Shown: piece after piece, positions 6,546-14,797 of the stretch | How the letters are laid out: each line of letters begins with the position of its first letter | Numbering within the stretch: the stretch's first letter is position 1 | Assembly: GCA_963837175.1 (NCBI GenBank) | Contig: CAWIMJ010000021.1 | Coordinates: 1-64,000 of the forward strand | Source: an uncultured Nitrososphaeraceae archaeon | Lineage (GTDB): Archaea > Thermoproteota > Nitrososphaeria > Nitrososphaerales > Nitrososphaeraceae | DNA: 64,000 nt | Direction of reading: 5' to 3' | Notes under the pieces: generated by a model | Seen by the model: the letters and a program-made list of their open reading frames with translations, nothing else | Database searches by the model: none | What the model was told of the DNA's origin: nothing | Translations under genes and position numbers: made by a program

Positions 6546-9504
6546 CTAATCGCCGCTCTTTCCACTCTTTCCACTCTTTCCACTCTTTCCGCTCTTTCCA
6601 CTCTTTCCACTATCGCCACTCTTTCCACTCTTCCCACTATCGCCACTCTTTCCACTCTTTCCACTATCGCCGCTCTTTCCGCTCTTTCCACTATCGCCGC
6701 TCTTTTCACTCTTTCCACTATCGCCGCTCTTTCCACTCTTTCCACTATCGCCGCTCTTTCCACTATCGCCGCTCTTTCCACTATCGCTCTTTCCACTATC
6801 GCTGCTCTTTCCACTATCGCCGCTCTTTCCACTCTTCCCGCTATCGCTGCTCTTTCCACTATCGCCGCTCTTTCCACTATCGCTGCTCTTTCCACTATCG
6901 CCGCTCTTTCCACTATCGCTGCTCTTTCCACTATCGCTCGCTCTTTCCACTATCGCTGCTCTTTCCACTATCGCTCGCTCTTTCCACTATCGCTGCTCTT
7001 TCCACTATCGCTGCTCTTTCCACTATCGCTGCTCTTTCCACTATCGCTCGCTCTTTCCACTATCGCTGCTCTTTCCACTATCGCTGCTCTTTCCACTATC
7101 GCTGCTCTTTCCACTATCGCTGCTCTTTCCACTATCGCTGCTCTTTCCACTATCGCTGCTCTTTCCACTATCGCTGCTCTTTCCACTATCGCTGCTCTTT
7201 CCACTATCGCTGCTCTTTTCGCTCTTTCCAGTCTTTGCACTATCTCCAGTGCTTACACTACTAATAGTAGCAGTGCTACTATCTCCAGTCTTTCCACTAT
7301 CGCTGCTCTTTCCACTATCGCTGCTCTTTCCACTATCGCTCGCTCTTTCCAGTCTTTGCACTATCTCCAGTGCTTACACTACTAATAGTAGCAGTGCTAC
7401 TATCTCCAGTCTTTGCACTATCTCCAGTCTTTGCACTATCTCCAGTCTTTGCACTATCTCCAGTCTTTGCACTATCTCCAGTCTTTGCACTATCTCCAGT
7501 CTTTGCACTATCTCCAGTCTTTGCACTATCTCCAGTCTTTGCACTATCTCCAGTGCTTACACTACTAATAGTAGCAGTGCTACTATCTCCAGTCTTTGCA
7601 CTATCTCCAGTCGTTGCACTATCTCCAGTCTTTGCACTATCTCCAGTGCTTACACTACTAATAGTAGCAGTGCTACTATCTCCAGTCTTTGCACTATCTC
7701 CAGTCTTTGCACTATCTCCAGTCGTTGCACTATCTCCAGTCTTTGCACTATCTCCAGTGCTTACACTGCTAGTAGTAGCAGTGCTGTCACTACTAGCTAA
7801 TGGTGGTGTTATTGCACCATTTTCAACTGCTGATATATCAGCTGAAATTTCTTTTGACTCTTCAACATTGGATGTTGCTAAATCTAATGTCATCGTTGAA
7901 TCTTCACGCAAGCCTAGTGGTTCAGCTGAGTTAGGATCTGCTATATTAGTTTGTCCAGCCCCCGGTATGCCAAGACTTTTCTCAAATGGTTCTTTTTGTT
8001 CTGTTAGTAGTAGAGATTTCAGTCCTGGTACTGGCTGTTGTTCTGATATTACCGATGGTTCTTTTTGTTCTGTTAGTAGTAGAGATTTCAGTCCTGGTAC
8101 TGGCTGTTGTTCTCCCGACTTCTCCGTTCCTGCTAAGAAAGACAATACACCTTCATCTGATTTTCCTGGGCCAGTAACTTTTTCTCTATCTGCTGGAAGT
8201 GATGCGGGTTCAGATATCTTTACTTCTTCTAATGCCACTCCTGGATCTATATCTGCAGATAATTTATCCGCCACAAAATCTGAAGCTTGGTTTGCAGCAT
8301 GATCGTAACCACCTTCGTATAGTTTTGCAACAGCACCTATTTTGTTTAATACGATGGGATTCGCTGCCACATCTGTTTCAAGATTGCGTAGAGATTGTAG
8401 AGCTTTAGAGTGTCCAGCATCGTTGGCAACTCTGACAAAAAAATCACTTAGAGATAATATTGCTGCTTTGACTGAAACATCAGTTTGCTTAGATATTATT
8501 ATTGCGATTTTATGTATATTCATCTTGATATCAGCGTTTAATACACATTCAATACAAAATTCTGCCTTGCCACCGTCGTTGTTGTTATCGTCGTTGTTGC
8601 TACCGTCGTTGTTGTTATCGTCGTTGTTGTTACCGTCGTTGTTGCTGCTTTTGAATACCTCTTTTACATTCTGTATAGTTGCACCGCTTTTTCCATCATC
8701 ATGTGTATCTTGTTTTACAAGCTGCAATATTGTTTGTGCTATAATTCCATTGGGATTATTTGCCACTTGATTTGCAATCTGACATATAGACTGTGCGGTT
8801 ACAACCTTTCCTTGTGTGTGGAAAATTTGCAGAGCTATTTGTATAATTATTGATTCTACCTTTTCTGTAGGGATGCCAGCTTGATTTGCAAGTATCTGTG
8901 CCGCCTGTCTTAGGTGTTCGTTTACGTTAGTAGATTCACCGCATGCTAATTGAAGAGCTATATTGACTAGCGACTGCGATATACTTTTACCACTAGATTT
9001 TTCCTGTATGATTTCTTTCTCAATAGCTGCTACATTACCACTAGATGCTAGTTGTGCGACATTGGCTAATGATTGTGATACACTACCAAACGGATATGTG
9101 GTAACTTGCAAAGATATCTGACGCATTTCTTCAATAGCCTGTTCTTCATTAGATGTTTGAGCTGTTTGCCGAGCTAATTGTACAAGTATTTGTTGAACCT
9201 GGACTGGATTAGTATCTGGATTTGTGCTCGATATTCTCTGTATAATCTGATTGATTGTTTTGATAATAGTATCCCCTTTATCATTAGCAACGGTACTAGA
9301 TGGAGTTTCTGATTTTTTTGATGCTACGGTACTAGATGGAGTTTCTGATTTTTTTGATGCTACGGTACTAGATGGAGTTTCTGATTTTTTTGATGCTACG
9401 GTACTAGATGGAGTTTCTGATTTTTTTGATGCTACGGTACTAGATGGAGTTTCTGATTTTTTTGATGCTACGGTACTAGATGGAGTGAATGATCTGATTT
9501 TCAT
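6546..9504 (-). CDS. Large low-complexity repeat protein, read through four +1 breaks in the C-terminal repeats
   Basis: ORF 7333-9504 continues in ORFs 7041-7361, 6968-7240 and 6546-6968; each break coincides with a 19-nt variant (ctatcgctcgctctttcca) of an 18-nt unit. Confidence 0.7.
6549..7790 (-). repeat. Coding tandem repeats: 18-bp SDSGKS/GDSGKS units, 9-bp GKS units, and 18-bp GDSAKT units with STATISSVST inserts
   Basis: Visible arrays of ctatcgctgctctttcca and ctatctccagtctttgca. Confidence 0.97.
9287..9486 (-). repeat. 36-bp coding tandem repeat (TPSSTVASKKSE), 5 full copies plus a partial one
   Basis: gctacggtactagatggagtttctgatttttttgat head-to-tail with no spacers. Confidence 0.97.
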
Positions 9505-10417: not shown

Positions 10418-11143
10418 GGCTCTGTTAACTTAACCAAGATCCATCAAGAACGCTATGAATTTTATTCTATCTGTTTTTATAGGTAGATATAATATAAACA
10501 TTTTAATCCAATTGTTGACATGCTTTCTTTCACATTCTTCTTTGTTGCATGGAAAATGATCATCAAACATTCTGTTCTATCTTTTATTTGTTGTATGAAT
10601 CTTTCTATCATATTCTTCATTTCAGTTCCATATACTCTATGCTTGAGTCTTAACCATTTACAGGCATGATTATACCAATGAGCACCATCTGTATGGATTG
10701 GCTTCCTTATTCCTTATTTTTTCCTAATCTGCTTGAAAAATTAATAACAAACAAAAATAGTCCTTTCTCTAGAGATATGAAATAACAAACAGACATGCAA
10801 ATTTTAGCTCATATGCTAACCATAACCAATCATCCTTACCATTTATCTTAAACAAAGTATCATCTACAAATATTTTCCTAACAGAATGTCTGTTTACTTT
10901 GAATCTATCATATGATTAGGAATACTTCTGCATCCATTTCCATATAGATACATGGATCTTTTTGTAATTGGTTCTAAAGACTTACATCCAAACCTGTAAC
11001 TCCTAGAACTAAAATACATGTATAATCCATATGCTACTATAGCGGGGTCTGTTCTATTACGTTTAGCAATATTCATGAAATTACTTAGAACATACTCAGC
11101 TTTAGATTATGAACCAATAGAACTTAATTAAGTTAAAAGAGCC
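10418..11143 (-). mobile_element. Decayed IS6-family insertion sequence (frameshifted DDE transposase)
   Basis: Terminal IRs GGCTCTGTTAACTTAA / TTAAGTTAAAAGAGCC; fragments FVDDT, TDGAHWY, ERFIQQIKDRTECLMI; only an eroded target duplication. Confidence 0.9.
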
Positions 11144-11365
11144 ATGCAGCATAGAAAAGAATTAAATCATAATGATATCAAGTTCATTATTTGTAGCACA
11201 TGTATCAGTAAAAATGCCTACTAAGGATAGGAGTCTAATGGATAAAATAATCTACGTGATAAAAATTCGACTAATTAATACAGGAGAGTTAAGAATTTAC
11301 AAATTTAAGACAATGTGTAATATTATTCGGTCCTTATTCTATAAACAAGTTGATTGTCTACTGTA

Positions 11366-11642
11366 GGTTCTGTTAACTTAAGAATAATTTTTCCCTTTTT
11401 AACTTCTCTATCTGCTTAATTGCTATATCCCAATCAAATTCTAATTTCTTTATTTTTACAAATCCATTCCTGGTCAACAAATAAGTCAAGAATTCTCCAT
11501 CTTTTACGCTCAGTTTTTCTCTAACTTTTTTAGGTAATGTAACCCTTCCTCCCTTCATTATTCTAGAATCTCCTAAAACTTTCTCAATATACATGCTAGT
11601 ATCTACTTAAGAGATATAGAAAACTGTTAAGTTAACAGAGCC
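11366..11642 (-). mobile_element. Non-autonomous IS6-derived mini-element (277 bp) carrying an AbrB-type gene
   Basis: IRs GGTTCTGTTAACTTAA (11366-11381) and TTAAGTTAACAGAGCC (11627-11642); perfect 8-bp flanking repeat CTACTGTA at 11358-11365 and 11643-11650; no transposase inside. Confidence 0.93.
11373..11594 (-). CDS. AbrB/MazE/SpoVT family DNA-binding protein
   Basis: SRIMKGGRVTLPKKVREKLSVKDGEFL signature of the swapped-hairpin fold. Confidence 0.92.
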   Translation of the reverse strand: MYIEKVLGDSRIMKGGRVTLPKKVREKLSVKDGEFLTYLLTRNGFVKIKKLEFDWDIAIKQIEKLKREKLFLS

Positions 11643-11717
11643 CTACTGTAGTTGCAGAGCCTCAATTCTTTTAAGGGAGTAAGTCAGAATAGAGGAATTA
11701 AGATTTCAGGGTAAAAA

Positions 11718-12155
11718 CTATTCTACTGTTTTTGATATCCTTTCTAATGCTTCATCTGTGCCTTCGGAAATGTGTTTTTTTACCATTCTTGTGAACATTC
11801 CAAAAAAACCTGTTATTTTGATATCCCATTCCACGTCTATTCTAGTTTTATTATTTCCTATATCATTTATTATAATATTTTTTGTACCTTTCATTGGTCC
11901 CTCAATAATGCTTATTTCAACTGATTTTTTGGGATTTATCGTCACAATTTGTTTACATACAGAATTTCTAAAACTAATTACTACGTTTCTTTCGATGATG
12001 TTATCTTTCTTTTTTATATTTTTGATAGATTTAGTGCCACGCCAGAATTGTGGTTCTCTATCTACGTCTGATACTATATCCCATACTTTATCAATTGGTG
12101 CAATTATTTCTCTGCTAACTTGAATTGCAACCATGTCTTCTTTAATCATTTTCAA
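11718..12155 (-). CDS. SRPBCC / polyketide cyclase-dehydrase family protein
   Basis: IIAPIDKVWDIVSDVDREPQFW, EGPMKG, C-terminal helix. Confidence 0.88.
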   Translation of the reverse strand: MKMIKEDMVAIQVSREIIAPIDKVWDIVSDVDREPQFWRGTKSIKNIKKKDNIIERNVVISFRNSVCKQIVTINPKKSVEISIIEGPMKGTKNIIINDIGNNKTRIDVEWDIKITGFFGMFTRMVKKHISEGTDEALERISKTVE

Positions 12156-12552: not shown

Positions 12553-12578
12553 TTTAAATACTATTGATTAGTATACTA
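12553..12578 (+). promoter_or_regulatory. TATA box plus candidate MarR operator
   Basis: TTTAAATA at 12553-12560 followed by the palindrome TAGTATACTA at 12569-12578, just before the probable ATG at 12594. Confidence 0.4.
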
Positions 12579-13142
12579 TCTATTAGAATTATTATGCAGA
12601 AGTATGACTTTGAAAATAGTATCGGATTTATAGTTAACCAAGCAGCTAAGGCTTTTGTCAAGGCTCTTGATTCTGAATTACGTCAGAAAGTGGGTATCAC
12701 TATTGGTCAATGGAAGGTTATGGTTATACTCGTCAACCAAAATGGGCTTGCTCAAAAGGAGATTGCTGAGAAATTGGCGCTTGAGGGTCCAACTCTTATT
12801 CCAATAATAGACAAAATGGAGAAGGAAGGTTTAGTGATAAGAAAGGTAGATCCAAATGATAGAAGAAATAATAGAATTTACCGTACTGAAAAGGCAAATA
12901 CATTGTGGAATAGTATGATTGAATGCGGATTGAAAATAAGAGAAGTCTCTATAAAAGACATACCAGACGAAAATGTCAAGATAATGAAGAATGCATTAGA
13001 AAAAATGTGGCAAAATCTTAGACTTAATTTTAATGATGATTGTACCATTATAGATAATACAATAACTACAACTACCAATGGTACTACTACTGCAAACACT
13101 GCTACCACTACGATCCCTGCAAAGAACAAGGAAAATTATTAG
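12564..13142 (+). CDS. MarR family transcriptional regulator
   Basis: GITIGQW, LAQKEIAEKL, IDKMEKEGLVIR..DPNDRR; start is probably ATG 12594. Confidence 0.93.
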   Translation: MISILSIRIIMQKYDFENSIGFIVNQAAKAFVKALDSELRQKVGITIGQWKVMVILVNQNGLAQKEIAEKLALEGPTLIPIIDKMEKEGLVIRKVDPNDRRNNRIYRTEKANTLWNSMIECGLKIREVSIKDIPDENVKIMKNALEKMWQNLRLNFNDDCTIIDNTITTTTNGTTTANTATTTIPAKNKENY

Positions 13143-13150
13143 AATGAAAA

Positions 13151-14797
13151 GTGGTGATACAAATGAAATCATCAAAAAAAAATACAGATAATTATAATTC
13201 AAAGCATACTCTACACGATACTGCATCCTCTGTAAAGATTCCATCTTATGCGTGGAAGGTACTTGCTGTATTAAGCTGCATTGCTACTATGGTAATGTAT
13301 GCAGAAACAATGTTGATACCGGCTATTCCTGATCTTATCAAAGAATTTCATGTATCATATAGTATGTCATCATGGATCCTTACAGCTTATCTAATATCTG
13401 GAGCAGTTATGACTCCAATAGCTGGCAAATTATCAGACATCTATGGCAGAAAGAAAATTTTATTGATTATAATGGTGATTTATGCAGTAGGTGTTTCTAC
13501 TGCTGGATTTGCTACAAATATCTACTTTATGATAATTGCTAGAGCCATTCAAGGTATAGGGATGTCGATGTTTCCTATTGCGTTTGGTATTATAAGAGAT
13601 CAATTTCCAAGAGAAAAAATATCGATAGGTCAAGGTGTAATCACGTCTATGTTCGCATCTGGTGCGGTAATAGGTCTATCTGTCGGGGGGTTTATAATTC
13701 AGGACTACGGATGGAGAGCCACATTCTTTACAATAATACCTATTGCAATTGCTCTTCTCTTGATTATAAGGCATTTCATTCATGTAAATCAAGATGAACA
13801 AAAAGAGTATCACCAGGGAAAACATGAACAACAGTCTCATGTTACAAATAAAGACCCGCAAAAGAATATAGATAATGCAAAAAGTAATAATGGCAAATCG
13901 GCAAATCAAATCGATATAAAAGGTGCATTACTATTAGCTATTGCTATTACCTCATTCTTATTAGTATTGACGTTCATTGAAACATCTGGCAGTAGCAATA
14001 GCACTACTAGTATTGGCAATACTTATGATAATGATAATGATAATAATACTTCGATACAAATTGTCGCTTTTCTTATTGTAGGAATTATTTCGCTTTTGCT
14101 ATTCATAATTATAGAAAGACGATCTAAACACCCATTAGTGGATTTTAGGTTAATGCTCAACAAGTCCATACTACCAGCTAATTTGATTATAATGATCGTA
14201 GGTATGTCTATGTTTATGGTATTTCAGACAATACCAATATTGGTAAGAAATCCTGAACCAATAGGATTTGGCGAAAATGCCATAAGCACTGGTAAAGTAC
14301 AGTTGCCGTTTGCAATAATACTCTTAATTTTTGGTCCAACCTCTGGTTTCATAATATCAAAATTAGGCTCACTAAAACCAATCATAGCAGGTACGATTAT
14401 TACTGCCATAGGCTTCTTCGGTCTATTAATACTTCATTCAACCGAATTCTTAGTGTCAGTAAACCTCGCCATTTTATCTACTGGACTATCATTGACTAGC
14501 GTTGGAGCTATGAATGTAATTATACTTTCAACACCAAAACAATTTAGTGGAATATCGTTAGGAATGAGCAGTCTTATGAGAATTATAGGGGCTTCAATAG
14601 GTCCTGCTTTAGCTGGTATGTTTATGCAAACACATCAATCGATACTAAATATTAATGGTGTAGTACAGTATTTCCCATCAACTATATCATTTAACTTGAT
14701 ATTTCTTTCTGCTGCGGTATTATCCATTGCATCAATAGCATTAGCAATATTACTAAGACAAAAGGCGATCAAAATGGCAATACCGAACCTTGTTTAA
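13151..14797 (+). CDS. MFS transporter (DHA2-like, 14 TM)
   Basis: WILTAYL, GKLSDIYGRKK motif A, ARAIQGIG, GWRATF, PLVDFRL. Confidence 0.93.
   Translation: MVIQMKSSKKNTDNYNSKHTLHDTASSVKIPSYAWKVLAVLSCIATMVMYAETMLIPAIPDLIKEFHVSYSMSSWILTAYLISGAVMTPIAGKLSDIYGRKKILLIIMVIYAVGVSTAGFATNIYFMIIARAIQGIGMSMFPIAFGIIRDQFPREKISIGQGVITSMFASGAVIGLSVGGFIIQDYGWRATFFTIIPIAIALLLIIRHFIHVNQDEQKEYHQGKHEQQSHVTNKDPQKNIDNAKSNNGKSANQIDIKGALLLAIAITSFLLVLTFIETSGSSNSTTSIGNTYDNDNDNNTSIQIVAFLIVGIISLLLFIIIERRSKHPLVDFRLMLNKSILPANLIIMIVGMSMFMVFQTIPILVRNPEPIGFGENAISTGKVQLPFAIILLIFGPTSGFIISKLGSLKPIIAGTIITAIGFFGLLILHSTEFLVSVNLAILSTGLSLTSVGAMNVIILSTPKQFSGISLGMSSLMRIIGASIGPALAGMFMQTHQSILNINGVVQYFPSTISFNLIFLSAAVLSIASIALAILLRQKAIKMAIPNLV

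Follow-up and report, generated by a model that had tools for sequence, protein, structure and literature searches.

Architecture of the cassette

Here we describe a 277-bp cassette, bounded by the ends of an IS6-family insertion sequence (IS) and carrying a single AbrB-fold gene, in the DNA of an uncultured archaeon of the family Nitrososphaeraceae. The stretch analysed, 64,000 nucleotides long and hereafter referred to as the window, corresponds to contig C21 in an assembly of 3.81 Mb (G000; 58 contigs, 34% G+C, 91% complete). Direct sequence reading and a pattern search placed the cassette at window positions 11366-11642, between 16-bp IS6-type inverted repeats, GGTTCTGTTAACTTAA and, on the reverse strand, GGCTCTGTTAACTTAA, which agree at 15 of 16 positions. 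A perfect 8-bp duplication, CTACTGTA, adjoins it on either side (Table 1). The repeat 16-mer matches the window four times at no more than two mismatches, against 0.12 matches expected, and none of 100 shuffles gave four; the two matches outside the cassette are the borders of a decayed 726-bp IS copy. That we are dealing with a mobile, IS6-derived cassette that carries a real protein gene is, in our assessment, nearly certain.

The only open reading frame (ORF) within the cassette encodes 73 amino acids on the minus strand and accounts for 219 of the 277 nt (about 80%), whereas an ORF and Pfam check of the whole unit found no transposase. Upstream of the ORF, about 24 nt 5' of its ATG, lies a TATA-like box, TTTCTATAT. 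At the other end, the final codons of the ORF (TTA AGT TAA) fall in the terminal repeat. Because TTAAGTTAA closes two of the three outward reading frames, an ORF end within the repeat is not special by itself.

Much of this anatomy had been put forward in an earlier note on the same DNA. Sequence reading confirmed the 277-bp unit, its repeats matching at 15/16 positions and the perfect 8-bp duplication, and ORF calling together with the match to Pfam family PF04014 confirmed the lack of a transposase, the TATA-like upstream stretch and the complete 73-aa AbrB/MazE gene. The note was also right that the repeat supplies TTA AGT TAA to the cassette gene, but it erred in adding that the dead transposase next door ends in exactly the same way, as ...GSWLS-stop. 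That frame of the neighbouring IS is interrupted by a stop 13 codons upstream. The C-terminal remnant ORF of the same IS (10430-10570), which aligns with residues 169-193 of an intact transposase (E = 1e-9), terminates as ...MDLG-stop, its stop codon being the first TAA in the repeat.

Table 1 Features of the cassette and IS6-family copies in the window
Feature	Position	Strand	Basis
Target-site duplication, copy 1, CTACTGTA	11358-11365		Same octamer as 11643-11650; two same-genus empty sites each have a single related octamer
Terminal inverted repeat, ORF-stop end, GGTTCTGTTAACTTAA; contains the last two codons and TAA	11366-11381		Sequence reading, pattern search
73-aa AbrB/MazE/SpoVT-fold gene, stop included	11373-11594	-	ORF call, Pfam PF04014
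Promoter-like leader, 32 nt, with TATA-like TTTCTATAT at 11613-11621	11595-11626	-	Box comparison; putative promoter function
Terminal inverted repeat, ORF-start end, GGCTCTGTTAACTTAA on the minus strand	11627-11642		Sequence reading, pattern search
Target-site duplication, copy 2, CTACTGTA	11643-11650		Sequence reading
Decayed IS6-family copy, 726 bp, same repeats, without target duplication	10418-11143	-	Repeats and transposase remnants
Second IS6-family copy in the window, 696 bp, duplication GTAAATAA	62415-63110	+	Transposase split by one frameshift

Movement of the cassette

A BLAST search of the host genome returned a second copy of the cassette (G000:C5:2484-2760) that is identical at 275 of 277 positions. 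The identity ends exactly at the repeats, and the copy has its own perfect duplication, AGATATGT, on both sides. In a genome of the same genus (G003), a 266-bp copy with a truncated ORF (locus L003, 1493-1774; G003:C238) has the duplication CTCTGTTC at its flanks; its insertion site is within the terminal repeat of another IS6 element. A repeat-like sequence, CCCTGTTAACTT, also forms the right flank of the cassette at three other loci (L071, L073 and L074), and the cassette may insert preferentially in or close to other IS6 ends.

The site occupied in the window is empty in two genomes of the same genus (G006:C346 and G004:C105). Pairwise alignment with cheap gap extension showed both flanks to be colinear; in place of the roughly 285 nt of the window (the cassette plus one copy of the duplication), these genomes have 0 and about 9 nt. 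Each empty site has a single target-related octamer (CTAACGAA and CTGATGTA).

The pattern extends to the wider set of copies, which comprised 60 full-length matches (53 of them unique) from Nitrososphaeraceae genome and soil metagenome loci. Both repeats, at no more than four mismatches each, were present in 39 of the 53 unique copies, and 25 of these 39 were exactly 277 bp long. Among 31 distinct flank pairs, nine were perfect 8/8 duplications, two matched at 7/8 positions and two at 6/8; by our own arithmetic, an 8/8 match at the given base composition has a chance of about 3e-5 per pair. The cassette is inserted at many sites with IS6-type 8-bp duplications. These repeat-bounded copies with different duplications (AGATATGT, CTCTGTTC and nine of the 31 flank pairs) bear out the mobility that the earlier note had suspected, as do the two empty sites, which it had proposed to look for. 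No relative was found that carries abrB at this locus without the repeats, an arrangement that the note had named as speaking against its idea.

Many metagenome contigs terminate inside the cassette; assemblers commonly break contigs at repeats. At L054, L055 and L100, the sequence matches G000:C34 at 98% until about 80 nt before the cassette and then diverges, and no clean empty site was recovered from this comparison. In run X10, a DNA contig with a loose end at window position 11369 joins the cassette end to a flank that is absent from the window, ...TTTACACC. This flank matches the odd right flank of L051 and points to a putative further insertion site in that population.

The AbrB gene and its conservation

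The 73-aa protein matches PF04014 (MazE_antitoxin/AbrB; E = 1.4e-5) with 25.4 bits at a cut-off of 24.7, and the TIGR01439 AbrB domain (E = 2.3e-5) with 24.0 bits, under the cut-off of 28.3. A profile of the cassette family matched 5itj, 2l66, 5itm and SpoVT (2ro5 and 2w1t) in the PDB at E values of 3e-5 to 1e-4, in an alignment that spans residues 11-53 and includes the G-R-V-T-I-P-K-x-V-R motif. Of the solved chains, those that match best are stand-alone archaeal regulators (53-54 aa) and the N-terminal domain of SpoVT; 5itj and 2l66, both archaeal and named 'AbrB family transcriptional regulator', gave E values of about 3e-5. A protein search returned 192 relatives at E <= 1e-3, and among the 120 listed almost all are 73 aa long. 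All but one of 27 aligned family sequences finish in LS, as would be expected if the repeat supplies the end of the ORF. A protein-atlas search from a family homologue gave only the family's own clusters.

Across the 53 unique copies, 31 ORFs are intact (72-74 aa) and 21 are broken; the remaining ORF, otherwise intact, runs off the end of its contig. The ratio of non-synonymous to synonymous substitution rates (dN/dS) among 24 unique intact 73-codon sequences has a median of 0.22 and a mean of 0.25 (260 of 276 pairs, those with dS above 0.05), in a set that consists of intact ORFs only, found mostly via conserved N-terminal peptides, and whose pairs share history. Heterozygosity in the same 24 sequences is 0.080, 0.068 and 0.187 at the first, second and third codon positions, the third varying most. 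As judged from these substitution patterns, the ORF is a real gene under purifying selection; a dN/dS comparison of abrB copies was among the checks proposed in the earlier note.

Copies decay where they are inserted, and the lineages that keep spreading retain the ORF. Autonomous IS elements behave alike with respect to their transposase genes, which decay locally and are kept in spreading lineages. A candidate for a domesticated copy was rejected: L083-L089 represent one decayed locus, seen in seven metagenomes, that has lost the start codon and the left repeat and carries a frameshift.

Codon 18 (window position 11542) is nearly invariant, and a V18D substitution there separates the two G000 copies (GGRVTLP against GGRDTLP). 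The metagenome contig L051, which belongs to the locus of the window itself (99% identity over 1729 nt), combines the D form with a C5-type repeat, which suggests polymorphism or gene conversion between copies.

The parent element and its promoter end

The repeat 16-mer (no more than one mismatch) occurs 87 times in the host genome, against once for a reversed-pattern control. Fifty facing repeat pairs lie less than 2.5 kb apart, of which 18 have perfect 8-bp duplications; two of the 18 are the 277-bp cassette and the other 16 are IS-sized, at 617-800 bp, in agreement with the view that an 8-bp duplication is typical of IS6. The repeats of the cassette are identical to, or one base off, those of resident IS6 copies of 680-830 bp, and terminal repeats of the family type (starting with GG and with G at position 7) are common to the cassette and to full-length resident copies.

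Most of the resident copies are wrecked: only three of the 43 IS-sized repeat pairs contain an ORF of 188-207 aa. The 207-aa ORF of G000:C34:127557-128244 matches PF13610 (DDE_Tnp_IS240; E = 3.7e-10) and, as a tblastn query, found 130 segments in the genome. The intact transposase genes sit in copies whose repeats differ from those of the cassette at 1-2 positions. In total, G000 has well over 60 IS6-related segments that belong to several diverged subfamilies, nearly all of them interrupted by frameshifts or stops; no more than two or three transposase genes seem intact (for example, the C34 gene and C50:5475-6164). Contigs C18, C19, C20 and C48 begin or end in an IS6 end. Archaeal 'IS6' elements may merit a family of their own, according to Harmer and Hall (PMC6807381).

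To compare promoter ends, 42 IS6 copies were oriented by transposase homology. In 23 of the 42, TCTATA falls within nt 21-33 of the transposase-start end, and in none does it do so at the stop end; most of the other copies have CCTATAG at the start end. In the cassette, TCTATA occupies nt 24-29 of the ORF-start end, and the base next to the repeat is C at the ORF-start end and G at the stop end, as in the IS copies. The placement of TCTATA and the repeat-adjacent bases thus match the IS copies and argue that abrB occupies the place of the transposase behind an IS promoter-like box, in the position and orientation that the earlier note had assigned to it.

The TTTTC of the TATA-like box is invariant in the 31 intact copies. 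RNA-library contigs from two studies span the interior of the ORF (11393-11545 and 11398-11548). One of the runs covers the silent left flank too, and no contig joint across the cassette was reported. As DNA carry-over is possible, these contigs give only a weak hint and attest presence rather than transcription.

Distribution across Nitrososphaeraceae

A DNA search found the cassette in 21 of 201 genomes of the family, in 7 of 18 genera (one of the 21 genomes, G093, is unpublished), and a narrower DNA search found it in 5 of 41 relatives. At most three candidates per genome were scored in the survey, and the copy numbers are therefore lower bounds. G071, which belongs to a different genus, has copies that are 92% and 91% identical to that of the window, whereas the copies of the same-genus genomes G005 and G003 are just 76% and 74% identical. 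Because the G071 copies are nearer than those of the same genus, the history of the cassette departs from that of its hosts, which fits horizontal spread. No relative of the cassette was found among IMG/VR viral contigs.

A probable minimal mobile insertion cassette

The best explanation for these observations, and one that we consider probable, is a non-autonomous IS6-family cassette with the architecture of a mobile insertion cassette (MIC), together with the mechanism outlined below. MIC231 of Bacillus cereus is a MIC with IS231 ends. MICs are defined by one or more passenger genes that lie between IS- or transposon-type repeats, without a transposase, and are activated by a cognate transposase; MICs with TnXax1 ends occur in Xanthomonas (PMC4337579). 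The cassette resembles them in having a passenger between IS-type repeats, target duplications and no transposase. In the host genome, tblastn with the AbrB ORF found the two cassette copies only, and movement is evident from copies elsewhere with their own duplications and from the empty sites. The cassette is the MIC design at the smallest size still able to carry a gene. Unlike MIC231 and the Xanthomonas MICs, it derives from an archaeal IS6-family element with 8-bp duplications, measures just 277 bp, and has a single gene that uses the promoter end of the IS itself and stops inside the repeat. Its cargo also differs in being a predicted DNA-binding protein, rather than an enzyme, resistance gene or effector, and in being conserved over a large, diverged family of copies.

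[quoted passage not shown] The cassette is like a MITE in its small size, parent-IS repeats, target duplication, lack of a transposase, multiple copies and decay in place. It is unlike one in being about 80% coding, for a protein with a dN/dS of 0.22; MITEBth2 and MITEHarch3 were compared by name only. A 2021 review describes ISDsp3 as one IS6-family 'transporter IS' with a passenger gene and a retained transposase (PMC7986276). The cassette likewise is an IS6-family element with a non-transposase gene, but, whereas ISDsp3 as described there is single-copy and keeps its transposase, the cassette is multi-copy and has the passenger in place of the transposase.

At the protein level, the likeness to the archaeal AbrB proteins (5itj, 2l66 and 5itm) and to the SpoVT N-domain (2ro5 and 2w1t) consists of sequence-profile matches, and the cassette protein differs from them in an extra tail of about 22 aa. 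We know of no case in which these chromosomal AbrB-family proteins are the cargo of a transposable element. Thaumarchaeal mobile elements have been surveyed, with IS families listed and the term 'MITE' absent from the main text (PMC6563490). In full-text searches of the literature we found neither an IS6-derived AbrB cassette nor such a unit in Nitrososphaeraceae; supplementary MITE lists (PMC11602168) could contain it unnamed.

The mechanism that we propose starts from an IS6 element that would have kept both 16-bp ends in their original polarity, together with a promoter-bearing stretch of about 30 nt of the transposase-start end, while its transposase gene was replaced exactly by the 73-aa AbrB-fold gene, which would take its stop and the two codons before it from the repeat at the far end. 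IS6 transposase from a resident full-length copy would move the cassette in trans, probably by the copy-in route of the IS6 family followed by resolution. Transcription would proceed from the IS-derived TATA-like box and yield a leaderless mRNA, the product of which is predicted from its family to be a small dimeric DNA-binding protein. This protein may bind the IS6-type end/promoter region common to the cassette and the parent IS, regulate the gene that encodes it, and either hinder or make use of the expression or end-binding of the transposase.

Several observations weigh against this explanation. Eighteen of the 31 flank pairs match at no more than 4/8 positions and show no duplication, and four loci (L052, L053, L055 and L057) combine four different left flanks with one common right flank, AAAGAAAC...; such mismatched pairs may reflect chimeric assembly across the repeat, or IS6-type rearrangement or recombination between copies. 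The PF04014 score is marginal, barely above the cut-off, and in a six-frame scan the window copy scored 24.9 bits and the C5 copy 18.6, below it. The make-up of the dN/dS set, given above, belongs here as well. Of the 20 full-length copies that a DNA-similarity search recovered from reference genomes, 16 have a broken ORF (the four intact ones are two in the genome of the window and two in G071), so that selection does not preserve the gene at every resident copy. In the 91%-complete assembly, no repeats identical to those of the cassette enclose an intact transposase gene; every copy with such repeats is broken. Finally, the interval from the TATA box to the ATG contains, in the main clade, an operator-like palindrome (TATCT...AGATA) with arms of 5-8 bp and a shuffle p ranging from 0.25 down to 0; it is absent from the other intact lineages, where the arms are of 3 bp only. 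Because it is inconsistent across lineages, we do not use the palindrome as support.

Possible roles of the AbrB protein

The role that we tentatively prefer is that of a regulator acting on the IS6-type end/promoter shared with the parent IS. The promoter end of the cassette is homologous to the transposase promoter end of the parent, so that a self-regulating protein would be placed to act on IS6 promoters or ends, and such a role would account for the restriction of continued spread to lineages whose ORF is intact. A DNA-binding regulator is favoured over an orphan antitoxin because the host genome offers no plausible partner toxin. The stand-alone archaeal regulators among the best PDB matches and the other solitary small AbrB ORFs of the host lean the same way. 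For this role only, KP elements provide an analogy: these derivatives of the Drosophila P element are non-autonomous and encode a DNA-binding protein that acts on the ends of the parent. The cassette, too, is a non-autonomous derivative with a predicted DNA-binding protein. Unlike the KP protein, which is a truncated transposase, the cassette protein is unrelated to the transposase, and tblastn with its ORF finds no IS6 copy.

A bolder version of this role, which we regard as conceivable and rather doubtful, would make the cassette a 'parasite of a parasite'. The AbrB protein would then be an adaptor that binds the shared IS6 end/promoter and steers or throttles the transposase of the parent, either by favouring the cassette ends or by repressing transposase genes, and its gene would be kept since it controls the helper.

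Alternatively, the cassette could be an orphan antitoxin, or 'antidote', unit, in which a toxin-less protein of the VapB/MazE type neutralizes toxins of the PIN or MazF type that belong to toxin-antitoxin and abortive-infection systems, whether resident or incoming, and serves as anti-addiction or anti-defence cargo. We consider this unlikely. It draws on the nearest relatives outside the cassette family, which are antitoxins and in this respect speak against the regulator as well. Thirty-five distant homologues in other phyla (28-60% identical to part of the query, with no match extending past residue 70) include 34 with a downstream ORF, 27 of these encoding PIN domains and two PemK/MazF. 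Source names label members of the family 'YhaV-PrlF antitoxin component', the PHROG match is 'antitoxin' (E = 0.0011), and there are weak NCBIfam matches to PrlF, MazE and doc-partner families, all far under their cut-offs. Moreover, toxin-antitoxin pairs, one PIN-AbrB pair included, are known as passengers of Tn3-family transposons (PMC7157771). The cassette protein shares the N-terminal PF04014 domain with VapB/MazE-type type II antitoxins. However, most of the distant matches stop by about residue 50, within the DNA-binding domain, and the tail that follows this domain is only about 22 aa, short for such an antitoxin. No chain named antitoxin is among the PDB profile matches at E <= 1.

The surroundings of the gene argue in the same direction. 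There is no toxin gene in or beside the cassette, which has no room for one and whose flanks differ between copies, and no partner of the usual families was detected in the host. The 91%-complete host genome has only two PIN (PF01850) hits, both housekeeping-like, one in a 617-aa open frame and one in a Nob1-like 167-aa protein with a zinc ribbon. Searches for PemK/MazF (PF02452), PIN_3 (PF13470) and YhaV (PF11663), which with PF01850 were the only toxin families covered, gave no hits.

An ordinary passenger is also improbable in our view. In this case the AbrB protein would tune host transcription, with the cassette as a mere vehicle and selection acting on the hosts. Small solitary AbrB-fold genes are normal in G000, which has four other such ORFs of 62-72 aa (C16:8879-9007, C16:48687-48791, C5:8222-8329 and C5:13916-14029), none with a toxin-like neighbour beside it; two of the four are near-duplicates that also resemble each other upstream. 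Among solved structures, archaeal AbrB-family regulators match best, and the element has spread over 7 of the 18 genera sampled. On the other hand, the ORF is broken in 16 of the 20 reference-genome copies, no copy seems fixed and kept at a shared locus (that of L083-L089 has decayed), and the site of the window is empty in two genomes of the same genus.

That there is no mobile unit at all, and that a host abrB gene lies between leftover IS6 ends or an ORF arose by chance in AT-rich DNA, is highly improbable: the genome is littered with IS6 ends (87 matches) and the Pfam score is only just above the cut-off, but copies at different sites share repeat-to-repeat identity with different perfect 8-bp duplications, empty sites exist, dN/dS is 0.22 with third codon positions the most variable, and nearly all of the 192 relatives are of the same length.

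Neighbourhood of the insertion

The decayed IS copy beside the cassette lies 222 bp away and is flanked by CATATAGC and ATGCAGCA; in tblastn with the 207-aa transposase, its remnants align to residues 1-181 at 33% identity. On the other side of the cassette lies a gene for an SRPBCC/polyketide-cyclase-like protein (11718-12155, minus strand). Since abrB is downstream of this gene on the same strand, transcriptional read-through into the cassette is possible. Further on, a MarR-family regulator gene (12564-13142) and a gene for a 548-aa transporter-like membrane protein (13151-14797) lie on the plus strand. A 723-aa ORF (7333-9504, minus strand) abounds in tandem repeats, with SSTVASKKSETP units in its N-terminal and GDSAKT units in its C-terminal part, and may encode a surface or low-complexity protein.

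Implications

Non-autonomous prokaryotic elements are usually regarded as non-coding hitch-hikers, and the cassette family departs from that view: it is widespread in soil ammonia-oxidizing archaea and has its transposase swapped for a 73-aa predicted DNA-binding protein. With 277 bp, it comprises a complete, putatively self-expressed gene with defined ends that is easy to synthesize, and could serve as a small natural gene-delivery vehicle for archaea with few genetic tools. If the 'parasite of a parasite' role were true, a non-autonomous prokaryotic element would govern its helper by means of a protein of non-transposase origin, a case that we did not find in the literature searched. The cassette marks recent mobile-DNA traffic between genera of Nitrososphaeraceae, and the persistence of purifying selection while single copies decay raises the question of what a helper-dependent element gains from a regulator gene.

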